Numbered from the stretch's first letter, positions 18,195 to 35,569 are shown. The stretch: DNA of 64,000 nt from a virus (IMGVR_UViG_2925891887_000001); one strand, 5' to 3'. Notes: generated by a model from the letters alone, not told the origin. Program-made: numbers and translations.

Positions 18195-18899
18195 ATGAGC
18201 AACCTCCAGTTAGAGCATTTTAACGTCACAGGCCATTCCGATTTTCCTTTCAAGTTTACATTGAAAGGTTATGCAGAGGATGCGGTAGGCCAGATCATTA
18301 TTGATAAAGACATCGTTAAGTTTGAGGGGAATTTTGATGAATCCGCGAAAACATTCATAGACTTCGTTGCCAAACGTTGGAGCGAGCAATGGAAAAACCT
18401 GGAAAAGCGCGCCAATGAGTTTGATCGGTTCATGGATGCAATGGATACAGCAAAAGAGGCTCTTGATGCCGGGACTCCGTTAGATCTGGAGTCACTTTTC
18501 AACGGCGAAGTGGCCTCTGCGATGTTCGCCACCATGTTCGCGGGTGAGTTCGTCCGCAGCGGTGCCAAAAACTACCTTGAGCTGGATTACAACGTCCCTG
18601 CAATTGGCGATTTCGTCGTTACCATCCAACGCAAAGAAGGTAAGACGCCAGGTGAACGCGTCGCAGAGCTTGAGGCCGTTGTGGATCAGCGTAACGGAGA
18701 GTGTGACCGTTTGATCAACGAGCTTCATGCACTTCGGGAAGAAAGAATATGTGCGGGTAGCAATACACGTAATGCAGCGGATATCTACTTCCAGTTAGTT
18801 GAGGAATGCCAGATTCCACCAGGTGGCTCTCTTGTCGATTACGTCAGACATTTAATGGCGGAAGTTAACTCCAGCCATAAAGATGGTGAGGTGCGCTGA
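18195..18899 (+). CDS. hypothetical protein (234 aa)
   Basis: Conserved leader AGAGAAAACACATG. Confidence 0.45.
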   Translation: MSNLQLEHFNVTGHSDFPFKFTLKGYAEDAVGQIIIDKDIVKFEGNFDESAKTFIDFVAKRWSEQWKNLEKRANEFDRFMDAMDTAKEALDAGTPLDLESLFNGEVASAMFATMFAGEFVRSGAKNYLELDYNVPAIGDFVVTIQRKEGKTPGERVAELEAVVDQRNGECDRLINELHALREERICAGSNTRNAADIYFQLVEECQIPPGGSLVDYVRHLMAEVNSSHKDGEVR

Positions 18900-19279
18900 T
18901 GTTTGGCATTGACGCACAGCGTATAGCCGCTTTTGCAAAAAGCCCTCTTGATAATCCCTTGTCTCGTAGTGAGCAAATGGAGCTGGCAAGGCTTTTTATT
19001 CACATTCAAAAACAGGCAGACGTTTTCAATAACATGCCTAATCAACCTATTCTGGATGGTCACATCCAGATGGTCATTAACAGTCATGAGAAAGGCTGGG
19101 CTGCAATCGTCCCCTGCACAATTACATACAGGTTGGCGAAAGAGGTTCAAGAGTTTCGAAAAGCCAGTGTCGAATCGGAGTCTACCAAAGCCGCAATAAA
19201 CACTCTTATTCGCATGGGGTTCACATGGACCGGTGGAGCCTACTGGCAAGCACCTCACCCCATTTTATCCGGCAATTAG
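18899..19279 (+). CDS. hypothetical protein (126 aa)
   Basis: ATG overlaps upstream stop. Confidence 0.4.
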   Translation: MFGIDAQRIAAFAKSPLDNPLSRSEQMELARLFIHIQKQADVFNNMPNQPILDGHIQMVINSHEKGWAAIVPCTITYRLAKEVQEFRKASVESESTKAAINTLIRMGFTWTGGAYWQAPHPILSGN

Positions 19280-19441
19280 ACGCTACAAATCCTTCGGCAT
19301 GAATAAATAAAGGCCATAAGTTGTGGCCTTAAATAAATTGTTTTCTACCTTTTCTTATTTGTGAAAATAACCACAACTAGAAAACAACGGAGTTAAGAAT
19401 GTCTAGTATTTCCGAAGCTCATATGTTCGCCGCTGGCGCTC

Positions 19442-19577: not shown

Positions 19578-20678
19578 TCACACTGCGCGGAATGCGATTT
19601 CGCCAGGTATTACTTCACCTTGCCAATACATTTGGGCAGCAACGCGATCTGCGAGGTCACGATAAATAGCCGTAAATTCACTATCTGGACGACTAATAAC
19701 GGTTGGTGTTCCGTTATCCAGATCTTCACGAAGAGAGATATGAAGTGGCATTTGGCCTAACAACTGCGTGTTGTATTTCTCGGCCAGTTTCTGTGCGCCA
19801 CCGGTGCCAAAAATTGGCTCGTGATGACCGCAGTTACTGCAAATATGCACACTCATGTTTTCAACGATACCCAGTACCGGCACTTCGACTTTTTCGAACA
19901 TCACAATGCCTTTCTTCGCATCGATCAGCGCGATGTCTTGCGGCGTAGTTACCACAACCGCACCAGTTACAGGAATGTTCTGCGCCAGCGTCAATTGAAT
20001 ATCACCAGTGCCCGGTGGCATATCGAGAACGAGATAGTCCAGATCAGGCCACAGTGTTTCCTGCAACATCTGCATCAGCGCCTTGCTGGCCATCGGTCCA
20101 CGCCACACCATTGCATTGTCGTCGGTGACCAGATAACCAATAGAGTTGGTTGCCAGGCCATGAGACATGATAGGTGCCATGTGAGTACCGTCCGGTGAGG
20201 TTGGACGTTGGTTTTCCGCGCCCAGCATGGTTGGAATTGATGGACCATAGATATCGGCATCCAAAATACCAACTTTCGCACCTTCAGCAGCCAACGCCAG
20301 TGCCAGGTTTACCGCCGTGGAGGATTTACCCACGCCGCCCTTGCCCGAGCTGACGGCGATAATGTTCTTAACGCCATTAATGCCTGGTTGGTTTTTGACG
20401 CGCTTAAGCGTGGCAATGTTGTACGACAGCTTCCAGTCAATAGCCTTTGCGCCAGTGATACGGAGCAGATCACCACTACATTGCTCTTTCAGGTCTTCAA
20501 AAGGCTTATTCCACACGAAAGGCATGATTAGTTCGACATGCAGTGTGTCATCCATCAACGCAACATGGTGTAACGCTTTAAGCGTAGTCAGGTTGTGTTT
20601 CAGGGTTGGGTGCTGAAAATTAGCCAGCGTACCGGCTACCATTGCTCTCAGGGCATCCGGCGATTTGGACTCGCTCAT
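19578..20678 (-). CDS. apbC: Fe-S cluster carrier ATPase Mrp/ApbC (E. coli chromosomal gene)
   Basis: 366-aa ORF with deviant Walker [12 protein letters not shown], CxxC pair (ICSNCGHH) and near-identity to E. coli Mrp as I recall it. Confidence 0.9.
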
Positions 20679-24829: not shown

Positions 24830-25675
24830 CCAATAAGAAAACAACTAAATAACAGATCAACGAAACATCAACGCTTTCACCCGATTTGGTCTAAAAAATT
24901 GACGTTTTCACACATCACTTCTTATACCCGTAATTCTACGCAGCAGATAGCGCTACAGCGTCCAAATTTCACCACAGACGACTCAACACACTACCAACAA
25001 AAACACACGCTCAAAATCGCTCCCGTTGCGTTACACAACCATATAAACAACTTATTTTCAGGTATAACAAAACAACTAAATAACACACATGCCATTACCC
25101 AAAACAACCAACCTCTTTATGGCAGGCTACCGAAAAGACCCACCTCTTCTCCCCAGGCTACCGGACAACCAACCTAACTTTCACAGGCAATCCGAAAACA
25201 TTCATACGCGCGATACCCACGACACGCCATTACCCAAACAGCGAAGAAACACCAGAATCACTGAAAACCCAACGAAGCCTGTTACCGCAAGGATTCTCTC
25301 AATCCCAAAAGACACGAAACAGAACAATCACGGGAAACGCCATTACCCAATACACGAATAACTACAAAAGCCTTTCACACACTCCAGACAAACAACTCAA
25401 ACACAATAACGAAAGGAATCGCCCACCTGCCATTACTCCATACACGGAGAAGAACAATCACCAAAACGACGAGAACACCCCATAGAAGAACCACCGCAAA
25501 ACGAACGAAACCACATACACCGACAGAGAGAACAACACACCCAATTCACCAACAGAAATAGTCGCCGTATAGAACGTTCTGGAAGGAGTGAGCATTAACG
25601 CCTATAGAGAGGTTGAGACAGATAAAACACAACATGTATAGCGAAGAAGCCAGGTATGTATAAGTGGGGAGGGAA
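24830..25675 (+). ncRNA. candidate long G-depleted (A/C-rich) non-coding transcript
   Basis: About 12% G over about 730 bp; begins at a half motif-A promoter-like element; four spaced GCCATTACCC copies; ends at terminator 25676-25697; only low-complexity chance ORFs. Confidence 0.3.
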
Positions 25676-25697
25676 GGAGGGGTGTCGCCTCCTTTTT
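25676..25697 (+). terminator. intrinsic terminator
   Basis: ggagg...cctcc stem followed by TTTTT. Confidence 0.5.
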
Positions 25698-25744
25698 CGT
25701 ATTTATTCAACTCCTGATTTTATCCCCCGTAACACCCCTACGGT

Positions 25745-25900
25745 CAGCCTTCGGTCCATACAGGGAAAAGGTTGCATCCCGCTACAGAAACGGCTGGGTT
25801 GCCTTCGGGGAACGGCTGGAGGTTTTCAGGGAAACGGTCGAGTTGCCTGTGTGGATTTCGGGAAAAGGCTCGATGCCGGTTCAGGAACGGTGGCGTACCG
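25745..25900. repeat. array of at least 6 degenerate 22-24-bp repeats with core (C/T)AGGGAAAcGG
   Basis: cagggaaaaggttgc, cagaaacggctggg, cggggaacggctgg, cagggaaacggtcg, cgggaaaaggctcg, caggaacggtggcg. Confidence 0.6.
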
Positions 25901-26271
25901 GTATAGCGAGAGGGAGAGTTGCGGCTACCCACCTGTAATGTGCGGGAAGAAGAGAGGCGCTCACGTAGGCGGACTTGCTTACCGCTGGATTCCCTCTGAA
26001 TGCCCAGCTACAGCGTAATTGTGCCAGACAGCCAGCGGGTCACAATCGATTTCAGTAGGTTTTTGGGGAGAGGATTACTCTGCCACCAGCCACTTTCGGC
26101 CACTAAATCAGAATAATGTAAAAAGTGCACTCGGTACTGAACCTGAAAACTCACTGCCAAAACCACATTCACCGGAATAAAATCCTTTTTCGCCTGTGCG
26201 TTATTGCGATAATAACACCAACAAGTAAACAACATGTTTAGACGTTATATAAACGAAGTGAGGATGAAGAG

Positions 26272-27953: not shown

Positions 27954-27982
27954 AAATGGCGCGTAAACCGCGCCATTTTATT
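27954..27982 (+). terminator. intrinsic terminator
   Basis: aatggcgcgtaaaccgcgccatt followed by TTATT. Confidence 0.55.
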
Positions 27983-28062
27983 AAGCCCGATAACAATTTG
28001 TTTTCTGCCTTATCTGATTTGTGAAAATGATTTCACTGAAGCAAGTTAATAAGGAAACCATC

Positions 28063-28437
28063 ATGGGACTTGATATCTATATCGAGACACAGCCTAAAAA
28101 CGATCTGAATAACGAGGCATCCAGAAAGCAGGTTGCTTACTTCCGTAAGTTCAATGCGCTCGTTGGGTGGATGGAGCGCAACGTAGGTGAAGTCGAAAAT
28201 TGTGAGCTTTTAGAATTAACGATGAATGACATTTGTTTTCTGAAGGCTCATTTGATGCACATAAACGAAAGTAATTGCGAAGAGTACTTGCCTACCCGGG
28301 AAGGTTTTTTCTTCGGCAGTCAGGAGTACGATGAAGGTTACTGGCATGATGTGGGGCAGTTGAAAGAGCTTGTGGAAGATCTGATTAAGAACCACGACTT
28401 TCACAATAACAGACTGACCTTCTGCGCCTGGTGGTAA
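28063..28437 (+). CDS. hypothetical protein (124 aa)
   Basis: ATG after SD AAGGAAACC; motif A at 27990-28004. Confidence 0.45.
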   Translation: MGLDIYIETQPKNDLNNEASRKQVAYFRKFNALVGWMERNVGEVENCELLELTMNDICFLKAHLMHINESNCEEYLPTREGFFFGSQEYDEGYWHDVGQLKELVEDLIKNHDFHNNRLTFCAWW

Positions 28438-28439
28438 AT

Positions 28440-28583
28440 ATGGGCGATTTCAAGAAACGCCTGAAGGAAAGAGCCGAGATGGTCAGAAAGCAAAACGCCT
28501 CTTCTGTCATCAGATACGCAAGGCAGTTTAGTCGCAACAACAAATCAGTTGAGGAAAAGATCCTTAGCGTAATCGTGCGATAA
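28440..28583 (+). CDS. small basic protein (about 47 aa)
   Basis: ATG 3 nt after upstream stop; below ORF-track cutoff. Confidence 0.25.
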   Translation: MGDFKKRLKERAEMVRKQNASSVIRYARQFSRNNKSVEEKILSVIVR

Positions 28584-28609
28584 TTATTAAGGCCATCAGC
28601 ATTGGTGGC

Positions 28610-29270: not shown

Positions 29271-29318
29271 CTGAGAAGAGGGCCAGAAACGGCCCTTTCT
29301 CTATAGCCACCAGCTGCC

Positions 29319-29479
29319 GCAGGGAAATTTTCAGAAACGGCGAGGAACGTATTCATGAGCCGACGGGGAACGGCCAGGATTTTTTCGGGAAACGGCTGCA
29401 TTTGCCTTTGTGTAGAAAAAACATCGGGAAGCTGGTGGAATCCAACCAGCGGTTGTCGGACAGGTGAGCGGGGAAAATT
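29319..29479. repeat. second array of degenerate GGGAAAcGG-core repeats
   Basis: cagggaaattttcagaaacgg, cgacggggaacggccagg, tttcgggaaacggctgc, catcgggaagctggtgg, gcggggaaaatt. Confidence 0.55.
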
Positions 29480-29805
29480 ATGATGACTTTCGTCACCTGA
29501 GACATCCAGATTTCTTTCGTAGCATAATCACATACGTGATTAAGTGGTGTGATTATGTGAAAAATCACGCGCACATAATACGCGAGCGGATACGGAACAA
29601 AACAAAATGCCGATCCGCGCCGACAAATAAACGCGGATCATAAAGCAAGACTAAAAGCCAATGATTAACTATGCGCTATAACGCGTTTTAAGCGCGTTAA
29701 TGTGTTAAGTAATGGGTATGTACTGGCAAGGATATAAAAGCGCGTCTATGGCGTTATTTTGGCGCTTATTTTTATGTTGTTGGAGTGAGTTAAAGACAAT
29801 AAAAA

Positions 29806-29876
29806 ACGCGCCATCAATGGCGCGTTATTGTGGAAGTATTGGAAACGAAAAAAGCGCCCATAGTGGGCGCTCGATT
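29806..29876. terminator. pair of bidirectional terminator hairpins at convergence of rightward and leftward transcription
   Basis: aacgcgccatcaatggcgcgtt and agcgcccatagtgggcgct, each flanked by A/T runs on both strands. Confidence 0.55.
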
Positions 29877-30107
29877 TTATTTGTGTAAACTGATTTTAAA
29901 TCCCATTTCTACGAACGCTTTTAACATTAAAAATATATCAGCGTCGTTCACGTCTGCTTTTTTTCGCTCCTGGTCGCTCAATAAGTCAATTTTGCGCGTC
30001 GTTTCATCTATAAGCTCGACTACACGCCCAGCGTAACCAGCGATCCCAGCGATGCGATTAACATAATATTCATTATGGACGTTAACGCCAGCGATAAGAA
30101 CAAACAT
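29877..30107 (-). CDS. hypothetical protein (76 aa), AT-rich cassette
   Basis: Leftward ORF, last gene before convergent terminators. Confidence 0.4.
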   Translation of the reverse strand: MFVLIAGVNVHNEYYVNRIAGIAGYAGRVVELIDETTRKIDLLSDQERKKADVNDADIFLMLKAFVEMGFKISLHK

Positions 30108-30128
30108 GATTAAGCTCCTTAAAAAAAA

Positions 30129-30332
30129 TTAAATAGAATTTTGAAGTTTTCCGATTAATGCGCTTAAGCGTAAGTATTCACGTTTGCGCTTGCAATCTCG
30201 CTTGCTGTTAAGCAAATCAGAAAACGTAAAATTTAATTGGTCGCGTTGCGCGATCAAATCGTCGATTAATTCCAGTTTATAAGCGCGATAATTTGCGCGA
30301 TATTCTGCGCGGATCTTGTCATAGCTGACCAT
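30129..30332 (-). CDS. hypothetical small coiled-coil protein (67 aa), AT-rich cassette
   Basis: Start moved to internal Met with AAGGAG 8 nt upstream; hairpin agcgcccacaatgggcgct just upstream. Confidence 0.4.
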   Translation of the reverse strand: MVSYDKIRAEYRANYRAYKLELIDDLIAQRDQLNFTFSDLLNSKRDCKRKREYLRLSALIGKLQNSI

Positions 30333-30380
30333 CTTTAAAGCTCCTTTAAAGCGCCCATTGTGGGCGCTTGATTCCATTAA

Positions 30381-31031
30381 TTACGCTTTAAAAGCATCAG
30401 CTAAATAATTGTAGAAATCATTCTTGATAAAGCGATATTGCTGTGTACCAGCTTTGGCGCTCCCAGCTCCTTTGACTTTTTCAACAAGTCCGAGACGTTC
30501 GCAAAGATTGATCAACTGGTTGGCTTGAGTATAGCCAGCGTCCAATTTAATTTCACACGCTTTTTTAGCTTCATTCATTAAATCGAAAACAGCGCCATTG
30601 GTGAACGTGTCGATCTCGTCGTTAATCATATCGATTAAAGCGAATACACGAGATCCAGACATATCAGCGATGGAATAAACGCATTTACCAGATTTAATGG
30701 ATTTAACCAGATAAACCAGTTTTTCCAGTGAATAACTATTAGTCATTGCATCACGGAAAAATACTTCTGGCGCTTGTTTGCTTGCTTTAATCGCATAGTA
30801 GAAAACAGAGCATAATTTTTCGTCTTCTACTGCGTTTACGACGTTGTTGATGAAGTAAGCAAGTTTAGTGGTCGCAGCTTGCATATTTGCTTTGTCTGCT
30901 TTGGTGTGCGTACCATTTTTATAATGTTCGTTATATGTTTGAGTTGCCAGATCTGCTTTTTCGCGCAGCTCGTCGGATACAATAGATGCAGCTTCAATGA
31001 TGGACTTTTTAGAAATGATAATGTTAGCCAT
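30381..31031 (-). CDS. hypothetical protein (216 aa), AT-rich cassette
   Basis: Start at Met-4 of track ORF (SD AAGGA); C-terminal region resembles a winged-helix segment. Confidence 0.45.
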   Translation of the reverse strand: MANIIISKKSIIEAASIVSDELREKADLATQTYNEHYKNGTHTKADKANMQAATTKLAYFINNVVNAVEDEKLCSVFYYAIKASKQAPEVFFRDAMTNSYSLEKLVYLVKSIKSGKCVYSIADMSGSRVFALIDMINDEIDTFTNGAVFDLMNEAKKACEIKLDAGYTQANQLINLCERLGLVEKVKGAGSAKAGTQQYRFIKNDFYNYLADAFKA

Positions 31032-31283
31032 GATGGACATCCTTACGAAAAATTAAAATGAATTTATTTTTTACTGTCGTTAGCTAGCTCGCTTTCGACG
31101 AGTTCAATTATCGATACGTGAAAAAAGATTGCAAGTATTTTTTTTAAATTTTCTGCAGGGATGAAAGTCCTAGAAATAAAAGCGAGATCGTCGAAGGTGT
31201 TCCCTAAATAAATAATCAATTCGGGCCTTTAACCTTATATATTTATACGGAGTGGCATCGAAAGAGTTTTAAATGAATGGCAT

Positions 31284-31312
31284 GTAAAATAATAACCGGA
31301 CTTAGCCGGTTA
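31284..31312 (-). terminator. intrinsic terminator inside leftward cassette
   Basis: Minus-strand taaccggctaagtccggtta followed by TTATTTTAC. Confidence 0.5.
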
Positions 31313-31326
31313 TTACCCTTATAGAT

Positions 31327-31851
31327 TTAAAATGGAAGGATTCGTTCAACCCAATCGAAGAAAACAAGTATTTTTCTGCCGTCTTCTAACTTAAGAGTGA
31401 CCTGGCAAGCATCAACGCCTCTTGACACCCCTTCTATTTCACGACCGTCTGTCATGTAGACCCTTATAGATTGGTCGTTTTGATAAGCCTTGCGACATAT
31501 CGCAAAAAAGTCACGGCGTGATGGCTGATTGTCAACATAGTCTGGATGTATTGTTAGCCTACCTTTGAACTCGCGAGCAATGTCATCGATTACACCTGAT
31601 TCAATTGTGCTAATGCGCTCAAGTGGGAGTCTTATACGATTTTCTTTATCATATGGAATCGGGCATAAATCTAGCTTATTGCGTGAAGGCATTGTCCCCT
31701 GAACGTACATGCAAAACACCTGACCGTCTTCAAGCGTGACTCTTACAGGAATGTTGTTCTTCCGCCAGAACATAAGTATGTTCTCAGCATGTTCGTAGTC
31801 TCGCGGCCAGACTTCAGCCGGTATGCCGTAGGTGATGTCCAATGTTCTCAT
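31327..31851 (-). CDS. hypothetical protein (174 aa), AT-rich cassette
   Basis: 4-nt overlap with upstream gene (translational coupling). Confidence 0.45.
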   Translation of the reverse strand: MRTLDITYGIPAEVWPRDYEHAENILMFWRKNNIPVRVTLEDGQVFCMYVQGTMPSRNKLDLCPIPYDKENRIRLPLERISTIESGVIDDIAREFKGRLTIHPDYVDNQPSRRDFFAICRKAYQNDQSIRVYMTDGREIEGVSRGVDACQVTLKLEDGRKILVFFDWVERILPF

Positions 31852-32462
31852 TCTGATACTCTTAGAGGTGTTTTCAGCAATCCAAATTTAAATTCTTTAT
31901 TACCAACGACCAAGAAGGGGACTTCAACATAGATTTTTTTATCGACGGATTTAGAGTTCGCTGTTTTCTTGATGTCGCGAACGATACGTTTTGTTGTGTT
32001 TTCATCAATAAACAATACCTTCCCACTGGTATTCCCTTCAGTCTTAGCATAAGTGACAATAGGTTCTTCATTGCCAACTCTGATGTTCACTTGGCAACCC
32101 GTTGTAGCCATTTCATCACAATAGAGTGTACCGTCTTGAATTTCTAAAACAATTCCAGATGGCTTCATGGCCTCGTTAGAGCTTACATTAGCGTTTTCTG
32201 GTACTGCGGTCCCGTTAATTTGCAACCGTAATCTTTCTGTTCCTGCATGAAGTATTGTTTCTTCTGCGTTATCTGAGAATCTATACCAGACTGGTTGAAT
32301 CAGACCTCGTGATTTGTATTTTAGTACGTCTTCAGAAGTATACATGCTGTACGTTTTTTGCATGTCAGAGACGAAATCTGATAATGCGTTGGCGGAAAAC
32401 GCCGGGAGGCATATACAAGCAAGGAATAACGAAAGTTTCATTTTCATATCATGATAATCCAA
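31848..32462 (-). CDS. predicted exported protein with signal peptide (204 aa), AT-rich cassette
   Basis: N-terminal MKMKLSLFLACICLPAFSANA with AxA-type cleavage site. Confidence 0.45.
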   Translation of the reverse strand: MDYHDMKMKLSLFLACICLPAFSANALSDFVSDMQKTYSMYTSEDVLKYKSRGLIQPVWYRFSDNAEETILHAGTERLRLQINGTAVPENANVSSNEAMKPSGIVLEIQDGTLYCDEMATTGCQVNIRVGNEEPIVTYAKTEGNTSGKVLFIDENTTKRIVRDIKKTANSKSVDKKIYVEVPFLVVGNKEFKFGLLKTPLRVSE

Positions 32463-32951
32463 TTATTTAACATCACACTTTCTAATTTTTTCTATTTGTT
32501 CTAATTTTTCATGATCATCATTTAGATTTCCTTTGACTATCTCCGTTTCAAGTTTGCTGATTAGCATGTTAAGTGCGTTGTAGTTATTGCATTTTACTTT
32601 GTAGGCGTAGTATGACCTTGTCCCTGGTTTTTGTACACCCATATCATTAAAGTTAGAGCTTAAAGTATAACCTTCAAGTTCAACCCCTTTTATTGTTGGA
32701 AGAATTATATTTAATGGTTCTAATTTAAATGGGTAGATATAAATATGTGATATGAAGTACTCTTCTGAAGAGATTTTCTTCATGTCTTTTGTGATTGAAA
32801 CTGAATATTTACGGTCCCGAGCGATATAAAATTTTGTACATTTGTACGGCTCTAAGTTGAATAGATAATATCTGTCTTTAAAAAGAACATCTTTTCCATG
32901 TGATATTTTATGTCGTAAAGAGTTAATTATTTTGTTTATAGAAATACTCAT
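32463..32951 (-). CDS. hypothetical protein (162 aa), AT-rich cassette
   Basis: Directly abuts downstream gene; Lys/Tyr/Ile-rich. Confidence 0.45.
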   Translation of the reverse strand: MSISINKIINSLRHKISHGKDVLFKDRYYLFNLEPYKCTKFYIARDRKYSVSITKDMKKISSEEYFISHIYIYPFKLEPLNIILPTIKGVELEGYTLSSNFNDMGVQKPGTRSYYAYKVKCNNYNALNMLISKLETEIVKGNLNDDHEKLEQIEKIRKCDVK

Positions 32952-33096
32952 CTACAGTATCCGACCTTAGTTATCAATTGAAAAGCCTACAAATATCGTT
33001 CAGCCAATCAAGAAATTTTTTCAGCCGGAGGTATGTACTTCAAAAAATGTGATGAATGTCACATGCAGGTGCTCTCATACACCTGCATGTAGACTA

Positions 33097-33663
33097 TTAA
33101 TCATTCAATAATCTATATTTTCTTTTGATTAAATCTTCACCTTTTTTGGTGAACACAAAACCAAATTGCGATTTTTTGTTCAGCCTAAGGACTCTGTTAT
33201 CCAACGCATCGGTTGATGGAATCAATGTTTGATCATCTATCCAATTAAGTAGCGTAAGAAAGTTCAGCAGCCTCAACGTTGTTGTGCGAAGCTCTTTCGA
33301 TATATTTTCAATGCTGGCAATTCGTCTTTCTTTTTTCTCAGGTGGTACAGATAATTGTTCTTGAGGTTTCGTGGGTAGATAATCAATTTCGTTTGCTGAA
33401 TCGAATGATATGTGTGGCGTAATTTTGCTAAAAAAGCCTTTCGCTGACTCACTTGATAATAAACCAGACCTATTCATATCGTTTGTTATTCTGTACAGGA
33501 GTGGACTGTGTTTCATTTCAGGATAACGTTGATAAAAGTTAAGCAATTCAAAAGCAGCATTAGCACCAACAAGAAAATCAGAAGGATCGCTGACTTTCCA
33601 GAAAGAATGATTTTTCTTAGCGCCAGTGGTGTCAACAAATGATAATTCTTTTAACCAACTCAT
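33097..33663 (-). CDS. hypothetical protein (188 aa), AT-rich cassette
   Basis: Start at internal Met (MSWLKEL) with AAGGAG 7 nt upstream. Confidence 0.45.
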   Translation of the reverse strand: MSWLKELSFVDTTGAKKNHSFWKVSDPSDFLVGANAAFELLNFYQRYPEMKHSPLLYRITNDMNRSGLLSSESAKGFFSKITPHISFDSANEIDYLPTKPQEQLSVPPEKKERRIASIENISKELRTTTLRLLNFLTLLNWIDDQTLIPSTDALDNRVLRLNKKSQFGFVFTKKGEDLIKRKYRLLND

Positions 33664-33728
33664 GATGTGCTCCTTTCTAACAAGTGAGCACATCATAGAA
33701 TTAGTAGATAGGGGGTAAATATGAAATG

Positions 33729-34007
33729 TTACGGCAACCTGCTCAGTATTTCCTCTAGATCTTTTTTTGTCATATTGGAGTTCTCATAGATGCGCATGAT
33801 TTTCTCACGCGTCTTAGCGGAAACCCCAACGGCAGATGTGACTTTGTCAAATTCAGCCATAGTCATCGTCTCCAGAATGGCATTGATAACTTCAGCCTTA
33901 GACATCTTGATTTTTTTCTCTTTGAGTTTTATTTGAAATTTTCCAAGTTTTTCATTGGCCTTATCAGACAATGCCACTTGGCAATAAGTTGTTTTCTTTT
34001 CGCTCAT
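33729..34007 (-). CDS. hypothetical small protein (92 aa), possible DNA-binding
   Basis: Lys-rich helical protein immediately downstream of helicase gene. Confidence 0.4.
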   Translation of the reverse strand: MSEKKTTYCQVALSDKANEKLGKFQIKLKEKKIKMSKAEVINAILETMTMAEFDKVTSAVGVSAKTREKIMRIYENSNMTKKDLEEILSRLP

Positions 34008-34009
34008 AA

Positions 34010-35569
34010 CTAATCTCGTTTCAGAACTCCAAAATCGAATGCGCCATCAACAGGCAATACACCTTCTGCAAAGCCAGGTGTGGTGTCGATGATGTGTTTT
34101 CGCTCATAAGAGTGAGACAACAGGTATTTGTTGCTAATGTCAATGAAATCAGTGATAAAACACACGTTTGCCTGATTCTTCTTGGCTCGTAAGCCACGAC
34201 CGACACGTTGTCTCATTTCAACTTCTGCTTTCCCACCACCAGCAAGAATGACCGCACCAACGCTTGGCACATCAACACCGACATCCAGAATAGTCGAGCC
34301 TATTAAAACATCTATGTCGCCAGACGCTAAACTGTTCAGCTTTGCTTGCCTTGTCGACTGGTTCGATTCCCCATAAATGAAGTCAACTCTAAGGCCGGAC
34401 TCTTTCATCATTTCCATCAGGATTTGCCCGTGGCGTTTAAGACGAACCAGAGTCATACAATTGAGAGAATGTTGCTTATAGAGCAATGCTTCGCGAACAA
34501 TGGCCTCATTACGTCCCAAATTATACACGATCCCCAACTGATAAGCCTTTTGGTAGGCAGTGCTCATACCTACTCTAAAATTGAGGTGTTTGTTGGCAAG
34601 TTCTGCCTTGATTCTGGCCTCGTCCGGCTTGTAGGCAACTTTATGATAAAGGAAGTATGGCTTTGCCAGAATGCCTCTATCAATCAGGTACTTTTCCGTG
34701 ACTTTTATTTCAATTCGCCCGGCCACTGCCATCAGACGCATGTTGGCTTCCGTAGAATCCTTCATGAACGGCGTTGCCGTAAGCGCCAGGCGATAGTCTG
34801 CGTTCGCACATAATCTGGCAATGTCATAGAAATTAGAGCCTGAAGACTCATGCGCCTCTTCCAGAATAAGAAGAGAGACACTTGAAAGGAAGCGTTTCAC
34901 CAAGTCCCGACGTTTGAGGTGGTAGCTCTTCTTATCTGGAGTTGCATCGCGTGGTGGTTCTTCAAGGAAACTTGCCAGAGTTTGAACTGTAGCGACGTTG
35001 ATATGTCGTGATACCTGGAACTCACCCGAGCCAATGACTCCAACCTTTTGGTCTTTTAACCACGGTTCGCCATTTTCGGCGCGGTAGTCGATGGATCTCT
35101 GGAAGTTTTCGGCCATCTGAAACATCAGAACAGAGCGGGTTGTTAAAAATAATGTCATTCGACCGATACGTGCAGCTGCTTTGCAGGCAACATTAGATTT
35201 CCCGCCACCAGTAGCGATCTGCGCAATCATCATTCCCTCTCGAACCAGTGTTTCCACAGTCTGATCCTGATATGCATAATCAGGATTGTATGGGAATGGG
35301 TTGACCGCCGGATTTGGCTTTCCAAGCGCCGGAGCTTTGTCTTTGCGGATATGAACACATTTGATGCCCGCCTTGTTCAAGTTCGCCGCTACAGGCTTGG
35401 CAAAGCCAGCAGGGAACGAGTTTTTACTCCAGTTGAACATCGTGCTTGTGCCCTTCCAGTCGCCAGTCTCGACTTCGTAGCTCAACATCTGTTGCACCAG
35501 TTGCTTTACCTTGTCATCTGCGCCAGAAATAAGTGCATTTACTGCGTTAGATACAATCCGAACAGTCAT
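34010..35569 (-). CDS. SF2 (DExH-type) helicase
   Basis: Walker A TGGGKS, motif II LEEAH, motif III LTATP, motif VI RQRVGRGLR; SD AAGAGG. Confidence 0.8.
   Translation of the reverse strand: MTVRIVSNAVNALISGADDKVKQLVQQMLSYEVETGDWKGTSTMFNWSKNSFPAGFAKPVAANLNKAGIKCVHIRKDKAPALGKPNPAVNPFPYNPDYAYQDQTVETLVREGMMIAQIATGGGKSNVACKAAARIGRMTLFLTTRSVLMFQMAENFQRSIDYRAENGEPWLKDQKVGVIGSGEFQVSRHINVATVQTLASFLEEPPRDATPDKKSYHLKRRDLVKRFLSSVSLLILEEAHESSGSNFYDIARLCANADYRLALTATPFMKDSTEANMRLMAVAGRIEIKVTEKYLIDRGILAKPYFLYHKVAYKPDEARIKAELANKHLNFRVGMSTAYQKAYQLGIVYNLGRNEAIVREALLYKQHSLNCMTLVRLKRHGQILMEMMKESGLRVDFIYGESNQSTRQAKLNSLASGDIDVLIGSTILDVGVDVPSVGAVILAGGGKAEVEMRQRVGRGLRAKKNQANVCFITDFIDISNKYLLSHSYERKHIIDTTPGFAEGVLPVDGAFDFGVLKRD

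Follow-up and report, generated by a model that had tools for sequence, protein, structure and literature searches.

The window, a 64,000-nucleotide stretch of DNA analysed at its full length, is an E. coli SSU5/pHCM2-type phage-plasmid. Eight consecutive ORFs (A-H) lie on its minus strand between 29877 and 34007, and together with the adjoining SF2 helicase gene they form the only multi-gene minus-strand block of the window. Both the row of eight leftward genes and its orientation opposite to the early block had been recognized in the initial annotation of this DNA. The locus comprises the following features:

25764-25890, plus strand: sister RGRAAMGG array, six copies with 22-bp spacing (motif scan)
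29285-29396, plus strand: RGRAAMGG array, four same-strand copies (29285, 29333, 29366, 29388), in a conserved ~600-bp non-coding spacer
29796-29872: tandem terminator hairpins at the end of the leftward C-B-A unit (terminator scan)
29877-30107, minus strand: ORF A, 76 aa (phrog_1585; dN/dS 0.08-0.30)
30129-30332, minus strand: ORF B, 67 aa, small charged protein (phrog_6145; dN/dS 0.06-0.24)
30381-31031, minus strand: ORF C, 216 aa, conserved backbone protein (fold, synteny)
31286-31319, minus strand: terminator-like hairpin directly 3' of D, followed by UUUU (14 bp, -15.3 kcal/mol, z -3.6)
31327-31851, minus strand: ORF D, 174 aa, FljA-family protein, candidate RNA-binding translational repressor (PF03614, dN/dS, gene contexts)
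31848-32447, minus strand: ORF E, 199 aa, slot gene, predicted Sec-exported periplasmic beta-sandwich protein (signal peptide, fold)
32463-32951, minus strand: ORF F, 162 aa, 29% GC, lineage-restricted orphan between G and E (dN/dS 0.34)
33058-33094, minus strand: strong hairpin directly 3' of the G stop (-24.7 kcal/mol, z -5.4)
33097-33663, minus strand: ORF G, 188 aa, cytoplasmic two-domain slot protein (dN/dS 0.12-0.20)
33729-34007, minus strand: ORF H, 92 aa, conserved small protein (alignment, hhalign)
34010-35569, minus strand: SF2 DEAD/ResIII helicase, head of the leftward arm, with backbone composition

All eight ORFs are matched by PHROG families, and because their dN/dS values against relatives range from 0.04 to 0.34, below 1 in every case, we regard them as real genes. 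The helicase gene is divergent from two ParB-like genes and is 91-93% identical in distant relatives; H starts 2 nt past its stop. The stop of E overlaps the start of D (ATGA), and the two genes also overlap or abut in relatives.

The terminators expected at 29.8 kb were found as tandem hairpins (29796-29872; -32.3 kcal/mol, z -5.5) that are invariant in relatives, one of which (29852-29872) is bidirectional, facing the convergent plus-strand genes as well. An internal terminator had also been described; a 14-bp hairpin is indeed present, at the corrected position of 31286-31319, and it marks an operon boundary between D and C. Likewise, the inverted repeat placed near 33.02 kb exists, with 11-nt perfect arms (33061-33071 and 33080-33090), and its true location is 33058-33094. 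This third structure is not a canonical intrinsic terminator, because its U-run begins ~15 nt downstream, and it probably separates a helicase-H-G unit from an F-E-D unit. The two internal hairpins split the arm in three: helicase-H-G, F-E-D and C-B-A.

Beyond the terminators, 10 of the 14 plus-strand RGRAAMGG copies in the window fall within the two arrays, and a density of six copies per 200 bp was reached in 0 of 2000 random placements. Within the array at 29285-29396, the third and fourth copies do not vary among seven relatives. Among the relatives examined, only the pMT1 locus, which is disrupted by an IS, and the most distant one (L014) lack the arrays after the C block; another distant relative (L013) has them in expanded form. 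These conserved repeats are likely protein-binding sites.

The block is visibly AT-richer than its surroundings, with GC contents of 0.345-0.396 in 1-kb windows between 30 and 34 kb vs ~0.47 elsewhere. The individual values are.398 (A),.406 (B),.388 (C),.442 (D),.390 (E),.292 (F),.360 (G) and.387 (H), compared with a mean of.479 +/-.036 for the remaining 61 ORFs (Mann-Whitney p = 1.4e-7) and 0.472 for the helicase. The range of 30-38% first estimated for the block as a whole is true of F and G only, D being at 44%. C has a GC content of 39-41% in all relatives, even where the helicase reaches 57% GC, as it does in one of them. As C is AT-rich in all relatives, its low GC is ancestral, and low GC here is no evidence for recent acquisition.

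The same gene order after the SF2 helicase, H, D, C and then B and/or A, is found in the Salmonella phage SSU5, S. Typhi pHCM2, Y. pestis pMT1, and plasmids from Klebsiella, Shigella, E. coli, Enterobacter, Buttiauxella and Kluyvera; one metagenome bin also has the order helicase-H-slot-D-C-B/A. A Klebsiella plasmid lineage of a different replicon type preserves this order with D at 36% identity, and more distant relatives keep the frame from helicase to C at 33% identity. In the reference members of the SSU5 type, orthologues of H, D, C, and B or A occupy the same position and orientation, with A, B or both present, and no orthologues of G, F or E were found at the matching position. Homologues at the same locus therefore exist for five of the eight genes, a finding that the initial annotation itself had named as counting against its interpretation, and the variable part is the H-D interval that holds G, F and E. 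The eight genes do not make up a single acquired cassette; of the initial interpretation, the notion of a variable accessory place holds good, in the form of this slot.

Most of the proteins yielded little by homology: structure and family searches with G, F, H, A and B gave no assignment beyond PHROG. H aligns with the 103-aa post-helicase protein of the distant L013 at 98.3% probability in hhalign. C combines a helical bundle at its N-terminus with a winged-helix-like domain at its C-terminus, and probably binds DNA. The phrog_6145 match spans residues 16-82 of an 82-aa version of ORF B; for a protein of only 67 aa, the PHROG label of this family, 'MIT family metal ion transporter', has most likely been carried over in error.

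The initial annotation assigned no ORF to a known family, which is incorrect for D. This protein matches Pfam PF03614 (Flag1_repress, FljA) with an E-value of 3e-80 and 268 bits (cut-off 24), residues 5-171 covering positions 1-170 of the 170-position model, and an allele at 36% identity (L017) also exceeds the threshold, at 93 bits. FljA is the phase-1 flagellin repressor of Salmonella, and reportedly prevents translation of the fliC mRNA, to whose leader it binds. D is 35-38% identical to flagellin-linked FljA proteins, and one alignment at 35% shares the invariant residues. In the C-terminal half of D, residues 123-165 hint at an Sm/Hfq-like RNA-binding fold through weak, sub-threshold matches, one to LSM (E 0.018) and one to Hfq (E 5.7e-4, 19.9 bits, cut-off 27); a profile search with the C-terminal half of D retrieved no Hfq chain, and its N- and C-terminal halves align with each other with an hhalign probability of 15%.

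PF03614 members at 35-41% identity to D (L016, L024-L027) lie directly after a flagellin gene, the position of fljA in an fljB-fljA type operon. D does not share this position: no flagellin gene was found near it in any helicase-linked locus, and the phage-plasmid D always lies between the helicase and C. Nor is D confined to hosts with a phase-1 flagellin. It occurs in 830 plasmid records (full-length in 821 plasmids), of which 341 are from Klebsiella and 62 from Yersinia (pMT1), and Klebsiella and Y. pestis are regarded as non-flagellate; Escherichia, the host genus of the window, is motile. Among Klebsiella alleles the dN/dS of D is 0.09-0.10, and a comparison of pMT1 with pHCM2 gives 0.16; these values indicate that D is under purifying selection in Klebsiella and Y. 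pestis plasmids. In our literature search, neither experimental work on an FljA homologue from a phage-plasmid nor an RNA target of D came to light.

The slot is present in many forms. Any of G, F or E was found in 192 plasmid records, vs 830 with D, and all three together in 22. Backbones with 91-99% identical helicases carry G+F+E, G+E, E only, G plus a lipoprotein, or a lipoprotein only; G stands alone in many plasmids, E stands alone in Shigella plasmids, and G+E occur without F elsewhere. Because they assort independently, G, F and E need not be one system. G has no match in Pfam or PDB, and its alleles in Klebsiella phage-plasmids are at 40% identity. Homologues of F form only two clusters among 5.8e9 proteins; an allele at 81% identity occupies the same slot, F is intact in a 99% twin plasmid, and it was never without G and E among the matches listed. 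At the N-terminus of E is a signal peptide whose cleavage motif, FSANA|LSD, is conserved, in agreement with the signal-peptide protein noted originally. The slot variants of SSU5, pMT1, Klebsiella, Cyrano and PhiR41_1 have a lipobox or signal peptide, and that of L018 has a signal peptide, so that nearly every variant is predicted to encode an exported protein or lipoprotein.

Expression of the locus can be followed in Cyrano, a 94-99% identical relative, through published RNA-seq (S1 Table of PMC9928086; log2 values with a floor of 2.32). The Cyrano slot differs from that of the window in having an opposite-strand lipoprotein gene and neither E nor F. In the lysogen the helicase (5.0-8.4), H (6.3-9.9), the slot lipoprotein CYRAN_115 (4.7-9.4) and D (4.2-8.1) are transcribed, G (CYRAN_116) is weakly transcribed, and C (2.3-5.7) and A (2.3-4.9) are nearly silent, A being at the floor in LB (PMC9928086). 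H (CYRAN_117) is the top-expressed gene of the block and is classed there as a moron, with expression at 12x background (PMC9928086). D increases ~8-16-fold in cell-culture medium and macrophages; in medium and in macrophages at 1 h it stands at 7-8 vs 2.8-3.9 for C, which reaches ~5.6 in macrophages at 6 h (PMC9928086).

Considering these results together, we propose, with a probability of about 0.7, that the block is the leftward arm of an SSU5/pHCM2/pMT1-type backbone, with the layout helicase, H, variable slot, D, C and B/A, and that it contains no self-contained acquired system. Instead of a new kind of defence, it would amount to a regulatory arm of a fairly common sort that includes a hot spot for cargo. 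The helicase-H-G and F-E-D units would be expressed in lysogeny, and C and H would probably be the element's own regulators. By analogy with FljA, D may bind the 5' leader of one or more target mRNAs and block their translation. Since intact D is kept in Klebsiella and Y. pestis plasmids, its primary target is probably not host fliC alone; D would more likely act on transcripts of the element itself or on other transcripts of the host, and in motile hosts it might repress flagellin as a secondary role. Slot cargo would act at the cell envelope, E reaching it through Sec here and a lipoprotein taking its place in relatives, which by analogy fits surface conversion or superinfection exclusion.

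A more literal reading of the FljA match is that D is a bona fide flagellin repressor for lysogenic conversion, which binds host fliC mRNA and lowers motility, its neighbours being unrelated cargo; flagellum-dependent phages would then be blocked, or immune recognition reduced. The full-length PF03614 match, the identity to flagellin-linked proteins, the predominance of motile genera among carriers (Escherichia, Salmonella, Enterobacter, Citrobacter, Cronobacter) and the transcription and induction of D in the Cyrano lysogen would all suit this role. We nevertheless consider it doubtful, as D is intact and selectively maintained in the Klebsiella and Y. pestis plasmids, has no partner flagellin gene, and holds a core position, also in a separate lineage of phage-plasmids where it is 36% identical. 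Furthermore, LF82, S. Typhi CT18 and O104:H4 carry such elements, yet are described as motile and H-typeable. The argument from aflagellate hosts is weaker if phage-plasmids move between motile and non-motile hosts.

An equally tentative possibility is that the FljA family is at root a phage-plasmid post-transcriptional regulator, with D acting on the translation of non-flagellin mRNAs of the element or host, the fljB-fljA flagellin switch of Salmonella and other Enterobacteriaceae co-opted from such a gene later, and the arrays, which flank the adjacent gene block, serving as operator or centromere sites for C or H. Control by D could then bear on the lysis-lysogeny or maintenance decision. 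Under the same idea, D would often be translationally coupled to the exported slot protein.

A single, hitherto undescribed cassette made up of G, F and E, perhaps joined by D, and serving defence, anti-defence or superinfection exclusion, the role first suspected for this region, is improbable. The variability of the slot among near-identical backbones, the AT-richness of the three genes and their confinement to these elements, the lysogenic expression of the slot in a relative, the predicted export of E, as with many exclusion proteins, and the co-occurrence of F with G and E among the matches listed would fit such a cassette. However, the occurrence of G alone, E alone and G+E without F argues against an obligate unit, a strong hairpin lies between G and F-E-D, and no enzymatic or sensor domain is recognisable. 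When all eight proteins were compared with PADLOC-DB v2 nothing was significant, the sole listed match (G with SspC; E 0.032, 9.9 bits) being at chance level, and no significant Pfam or PDB matches support the cassette; a defence or anti-defence role would stand by analogy only.

Recent horizontal acquisition of all eight genes, to which opposite orientation and low GC might point, is very improbable, given that five of the eight keep their synteny in every relative, at protein identities as low as 33-58%, that the AT-richness of C is the same in all lineages regardless of backbone GC, and that the block is contiguous and co-oriented with the backbone helicase, H starting 2 nt past its stop.

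Reading the block as a backbone arm removes a false lead, in that it is no new defence island. Phage-plasmids of the SSU5/pHCM2/pMT1 type occur commonly in clinical E. coli, Shigella, S. Typhi, Klebsiella and Y. pestis; the majority of their genes are labelled hypothetical. The lysogeny-expressed FljA-family gene may encode a post-transcriptional regulator that has gone unrecognised, or else modify motility and immune visibility in motile pathogens, and it is accompanied by a defined cargo slot that almost always holds an exported protein. Current concepts are unchanged unless the target of D proves non-flagellar.

Compared with Salmonella FljA, D matches the PF03614 model from end to end and has the same size and domain layout. 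It differs in having neither an upstream flagellin gene nor an invertible promoter, in its site in the phage-plasmid core between the helicase and a winged-helix-like protein, and in its retention in Klebsiella and Y. pestis plasmids. The best structural neighbour of the confident core of E is IalB (invasion-associated locus B, PDB 3dtd), likewise an exported, periplasmic beta-sandwich protein. The slot resembles moron and superinfection-exclusion loci, of which Cor (phi80/HK022), Llp (T5) and Bor (lambda) are examples that encode exported proteins or lipoproteins: it is short, AT-rich, variable among near-identical elements, lysogeny-expressed in the relative Cyrano, and nearly always has an envelope-targeted product. 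The closest counterparts of the arm as a whole are SSU5 (SSU5_119-124), pHCM2, pMT1 and the Escherichia phages Cyrano, PhiR41_1 and CMS-2020a. Their slots are unlike that of the window, which has G+F+E in common with 21 other plasmid records, with one lipoprotein-type gene of 117-140 aa in SSU5, pMT1 and pHCM2, and G plus a 266-aa lipoprotein on the opposite strand in Cyrano. The loci are otherwise identical to it in gene order and orientation, with orthologous H, D, C and B/A, and they have in common with it the helicase flank, the ParB-like genes, and the terminators and motif array of the conserved spacer.

All eight minus-strand ORFs called in the initial annotation were found. They are lettered A to H from the leftmost to the one adjoining the SF2 helicase gene, and are listed with their identity to distant relatives where this was obtained.

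Features of the leftward block
29877-30107, minus strand, ORF A, 76 aa; 46-51% identity
30129-30332, minus strand, ORF B, 67 aa; 87-90% identity
30381-31031, minus strand, ORF C, 216 aa; 84-88% identity
31327-31851, minus strand, ORF D, 174 aa; 67-78% identity
31848-32447, minus strand, ORF E, 199 aa; 52-58% identity
32463-32951, minus strand, ORF F, 162 aa
33097-33663, minus strand, ORF G, 188 aa; 40% identity
33729-34007, minus strand, ORF H, 92 aa; 52-58% identity
34010-35569, minus strand, SF2 helicase gene; 91-93% identity

Each of the eight ORFs matches a PHROG family end to end. Their dN/dS against relatives ranges from 0.04 to 0.34, and A-H are therefore real genes. Together with the helicase gene, whose stop is 2 nt from the start of H, they form the sole multi-gene leftward block of the window. 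Tandem terminators lie at 29796-29872, and hairpins stand after G and after D. Both hairpins called initially exist (33058-33094, -24.7 kcal/mol; 31286-31319, -15.3 kcal/mol), although one had been placed wrongly. An Rfam scan of 28.5-36.5 kb returned no score close to any gathering threshold. Sigma-70 promoter matches were not enriched (17 versus 16.9 in shuffled sequences), and we therefore do not claim promoters.

By nucleotide comparison, the block region (29280-34007) and its flanks match an SSU5-type phage-plasmid. Escherichia phage CMS-2020a spans the entire region with a 94.8% match, Cyrano (pLF82) and PhiR41_1 match at 93-96% across 71-76% of it, and Salmonella phage SSU5 matches at 78% across 38%. 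The helicase/ParB side is 98% identical to E. coli relatives and ~80-83% identical to SSU5 and Klebsiella elements. A plasmid collection contained 769 matching records, chiefly non-mobilizable, of ~100-115 kb and from Klebsiella, Escherichia, Enterobacter, Yersinia and Salmonella; coverage of the region reaches 80% or more in just 21 of them. In the annotated plasmid NZ_CP070135, a 99.2% twin, the block is flanked by a rightward small-gene block and a ParB-like/terminase/portal/capsid module. Colinearity with this twin (97% identity) also places two host-type housekeeping genes on the phage-plasmid, where GC is ~0.51: apbC (iron-sulfur cluster carrier; 19578-20678, minus strand) and metG (methionyl-tRNA synthetase; ~20.8-22.9 kb, plus strand). 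The two sequences diverge at 27980-28602 (18218-19323 in the twin's locus, L011), where the window has a 138-aa ORF (28021-28437) and the twin an IS200C transposase. On this alignment, the stretch is a second small variable spot, within the rightward block.

The block had been proposed to be a single horizontally acquired cassette. Judged by comparison with the loci of 20 relatives, it is not one: conserved backbone accounts for five of its eight genes. The order helicase, H, a variable slot, D, C, and then B and/or A, which we refer to as the arm, is invariant in SSU5, Y. pestis pMT1 and S. Typhi pHCM2, and is likewise unchanged in several Klebsiella, E. coli and Shigella plasmids, in Buttiauxella and Kluyvera, and in one metagenome bin. 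A Klebsiella plasmid of another replicon type carries a minimal arm, helicase-H-like-D-C, in which D has 36% identity and scores above the Pfam threshold. Two more distant contigs retain the frame from helicase to C; an H homologue is present in one (hhalign 98.3%), and in the other the helicase-C interval is empty.

The block is AT-rich, as initially described, with a GC content of 0.345-0.396 in 1-kb windows from 30 to 34 kb versus ~0.47 elsewhere. Individual ORFs range from 0.292 (F) to 0.442 (D), compared with 0.479 ± 0.036 for the other ORFs (p = 1.4e-7). C has a GC content of 0.39-0.41 in each SSU5-type relative, even beside a helicase gene of 0.57, and the D gene of pMT1 and of Klebsiella has a backbone-like value (0.47-0.52). 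Because of this, we attribute the dip to intrinsically AT-rich conserved genes (C, A/B and H) combined with the AT-rich slot genes G, F and E. Read across relatives, the low GC of the block is no sign of recent acquisition.

The remaining three genes, by their distribution, occupy a true cargo slot yet assort independently. The slot holds G, F and E in the window and in relative L012, G and E in other relatives, E alone in Shigella, G with an opposite-strand lipoprotein gene in Cyrano, and a single lipoprotein-type gene in SSU5, pMT1 and pHCM2. Searches with tblastn found any of the three in 192 plasmid records and all three in 22; D was found in 830. In a collection of 5.8 billion proteins, F formed two clusters, G ten and E twenty-nine, and those located on long contigs were on plasmid-sized, enterobacterial ones. 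Lipoboxes were identified in the slot variants of SSU5, pMT1, a Klebsiella locus (L005) and Cyrano/PhiR41_1, and a Sec signal peptide in those of PhiR41_1 and Klebsiella L018. Judged from such signals, nearly every other slot variant would encode an exported protein. The suggested role in exclusion stands solely as an analogy for these proteins. PhiR41_1 (L002, 6975-7550 and 6593-6946) and Klebsiella L018 (3438-4052 and 4077-4433) share a common alternative two-gene cargo, a ~190-204-aa cytoplasmic protein followed by a ~117-aa secreted protein. The N-terminal sequences are alike between the pairs, a likeness that suggests exchange of slot modules across genera. In the window the TGA of E overlaps the ATG of D, and E abuts or overlaps the start of D wherever it is present (by annotation in L007-L010 and L012; by adjacent tblastn matches in L023). 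The D75 allele was seen in loci that have E and in loci that lack it, and strict co-variation of E and D alleles was therefore rejected.

Published RNA-seq of strain LF82 carrying Cyrano is informative for the window because the H, G and D proteins of Cyrano are 100%, 98% and 99% identical to those studied here.

Expression of arm and neighboring genes in Cyrano (PMC9928086, S1 Table; log2 values, floor 2.32; LB overnight, then medium/macrophages)
Helicase: 5.0-5.9; 7.2-8.4
H: 6.3-7.2; 8.6-9.9
G: 2.3-3.7; 4.0-5.9
Slot lipoprotein: 4.7-5.0; 7.9-9.4
D: 4.2; 6.9-8.1
C: 2.3-2.8; 2.8-5.7
A: 2.3; 3.0-4.9
First ParB-like gene: 2.3; 3.1-5.2

By these values, the plasmid-prophage state has the upstream part of the arm switched on and the stretch beyond the D hairpin largely off. 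The authors of that study listed H (CYRAN_117) as a moron, at 12x background (PMC9928086).

Scans of all eight proteins with PADLOC, NCBIfam and Pfam yielded a family assignment for D alone, and neither Pfam, PADLOC nor PDB gave a match for H, G, F, A or B. Searches of PDB by sequence and by profile with H, E, C, G and the C-terminal half of D gave no credible match; matches of H to designed helical repeats were dismissed as compositional. A ribbon-helix-helix reading of H was dropped because neither H nor its distant homologues had Pfam or PDB support for it. In the confidently predicted model of C (pLDDT 90.7), a helical bundle forms the N-terminal part and a winged-helix-like domain the C-terminal part; its fold matches were partial only (cullin/APC2 WHB, Cdc6 WH and ArsR/MarR-type HTH). 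The fold search with E matched only generic beta-sandwiches. No evidence that we found links the block to defence or anti-defence, as had been proposed.

A ~600-bp spacer at the start of the block region is conserved across genera. It contains four same-strand copies of RGRAAMGG (29285-29396, plus strand; spacing 48, 33 and 22 bp), and a second array of six copies lies at 25764-25890 (plus strand; spacing 22, 22, 22, 31 and 22 bp). The two arrays hold 10 of the 14 plus-strand copies of the window, and a density of six copies per 200 bp was reached in 0 of 2000 random placements. In most of the relatives inspected, arrays of this kind also follow the C block, and the distant relative L013 has enlarged versions with 8 and 9 copies. 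In pMT1 (L004, 7408-7866), the conserved spacer that follows the C-A block is interrupted by an IS1541 element (IS200/IS605 family), with loss of most of the array present in other relatives. The arrays look like iteron, centromere or operator sites, and are putatively protein-binding. A partition ATPase was looked for next to the 25.8-kb array, and no Pfam ParA match was found in the adjacent ORFs. The surrounding ~1.2 kb (25000-26200) has no credible gene, and none is annotated in the twin; it is A/C-skewed (AT skew 0.31, GC skew -0.14) with many degenerate direct repeats, e.g. GCCATTACCC... and AACAAC-rich units. A mechanical ORF at 25656-26018, overlapping the 22-bp array, is probably spurious. 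The spacer also holds, within 29696-29735, a 15-mer, GTAATGGGTATGTAC, that hardly varies between the relatives from E. coli, Salmonella and Klebsiella, with one substitution in SSU5, although the spacer sequence on either side diverges. The 15-mer may be a regulatory or recognition site.

While the initial annotation could assign no ORF to a family, D belongs to Pfam family PF03614 (FljA, "repressor of phase-1 flagellin"), which it matches over its full length at E 3e-80. It also aligns from end to end with the flagellin-linked FljA of a Salmonella linear plasmid (35% identity). Comparison with the 171-aa protein that occupies this position in L013 gave a BLASTP E of 0.49 and an hhalign probability of 17%, which does not establish homology. 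The C-terminal half of D had weak, sub-threshold Hfq/LSM matches that profile searches did not confirm. A tandem Sm-like architecture is a weak lead only, the two halves matching at 15% hhalign probability.

A scan using one genome per species revealed two contexts for FljA. Members with 35-41% identity (Franconibacter, Atlantibacter, Citrobacter and the Salmonella linear plasmid) directly follow a flagellin gene; phage-plasmid members all lie between helicase/H and C, where a flagellin gene is absent. Among plasmid records, 341 from Klebsiella and 62 from Yersinia carry D at full length. Its dN/dS is 0.09-0.10 within the Klebsiella alleles and 0.16 for pMT1 against pHCM2. We take Klebsiella and Y. 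pestis to be non-flagellate, and read the retention of D at these values in such hosts as selection for a flagellin-independent function. FljA-family proteins bind an mRNA leader and block translation. Our best guess is that D would retain this mode but have transcripts other than flagellin as its targets; in motile hosts it may additionally repress flagellin.

Our literature search found no paper on the function of the block locus or of any phage-plasmid FljA homologue. The parts are of known kinds, namely a temperate-element regulatory arm, a moron slot and an FljA-family protein, and we consider the novelty low. The one item that a specialist might find worth an experiment is D, the lone, core, lysogeny-expressed FljA homologue.
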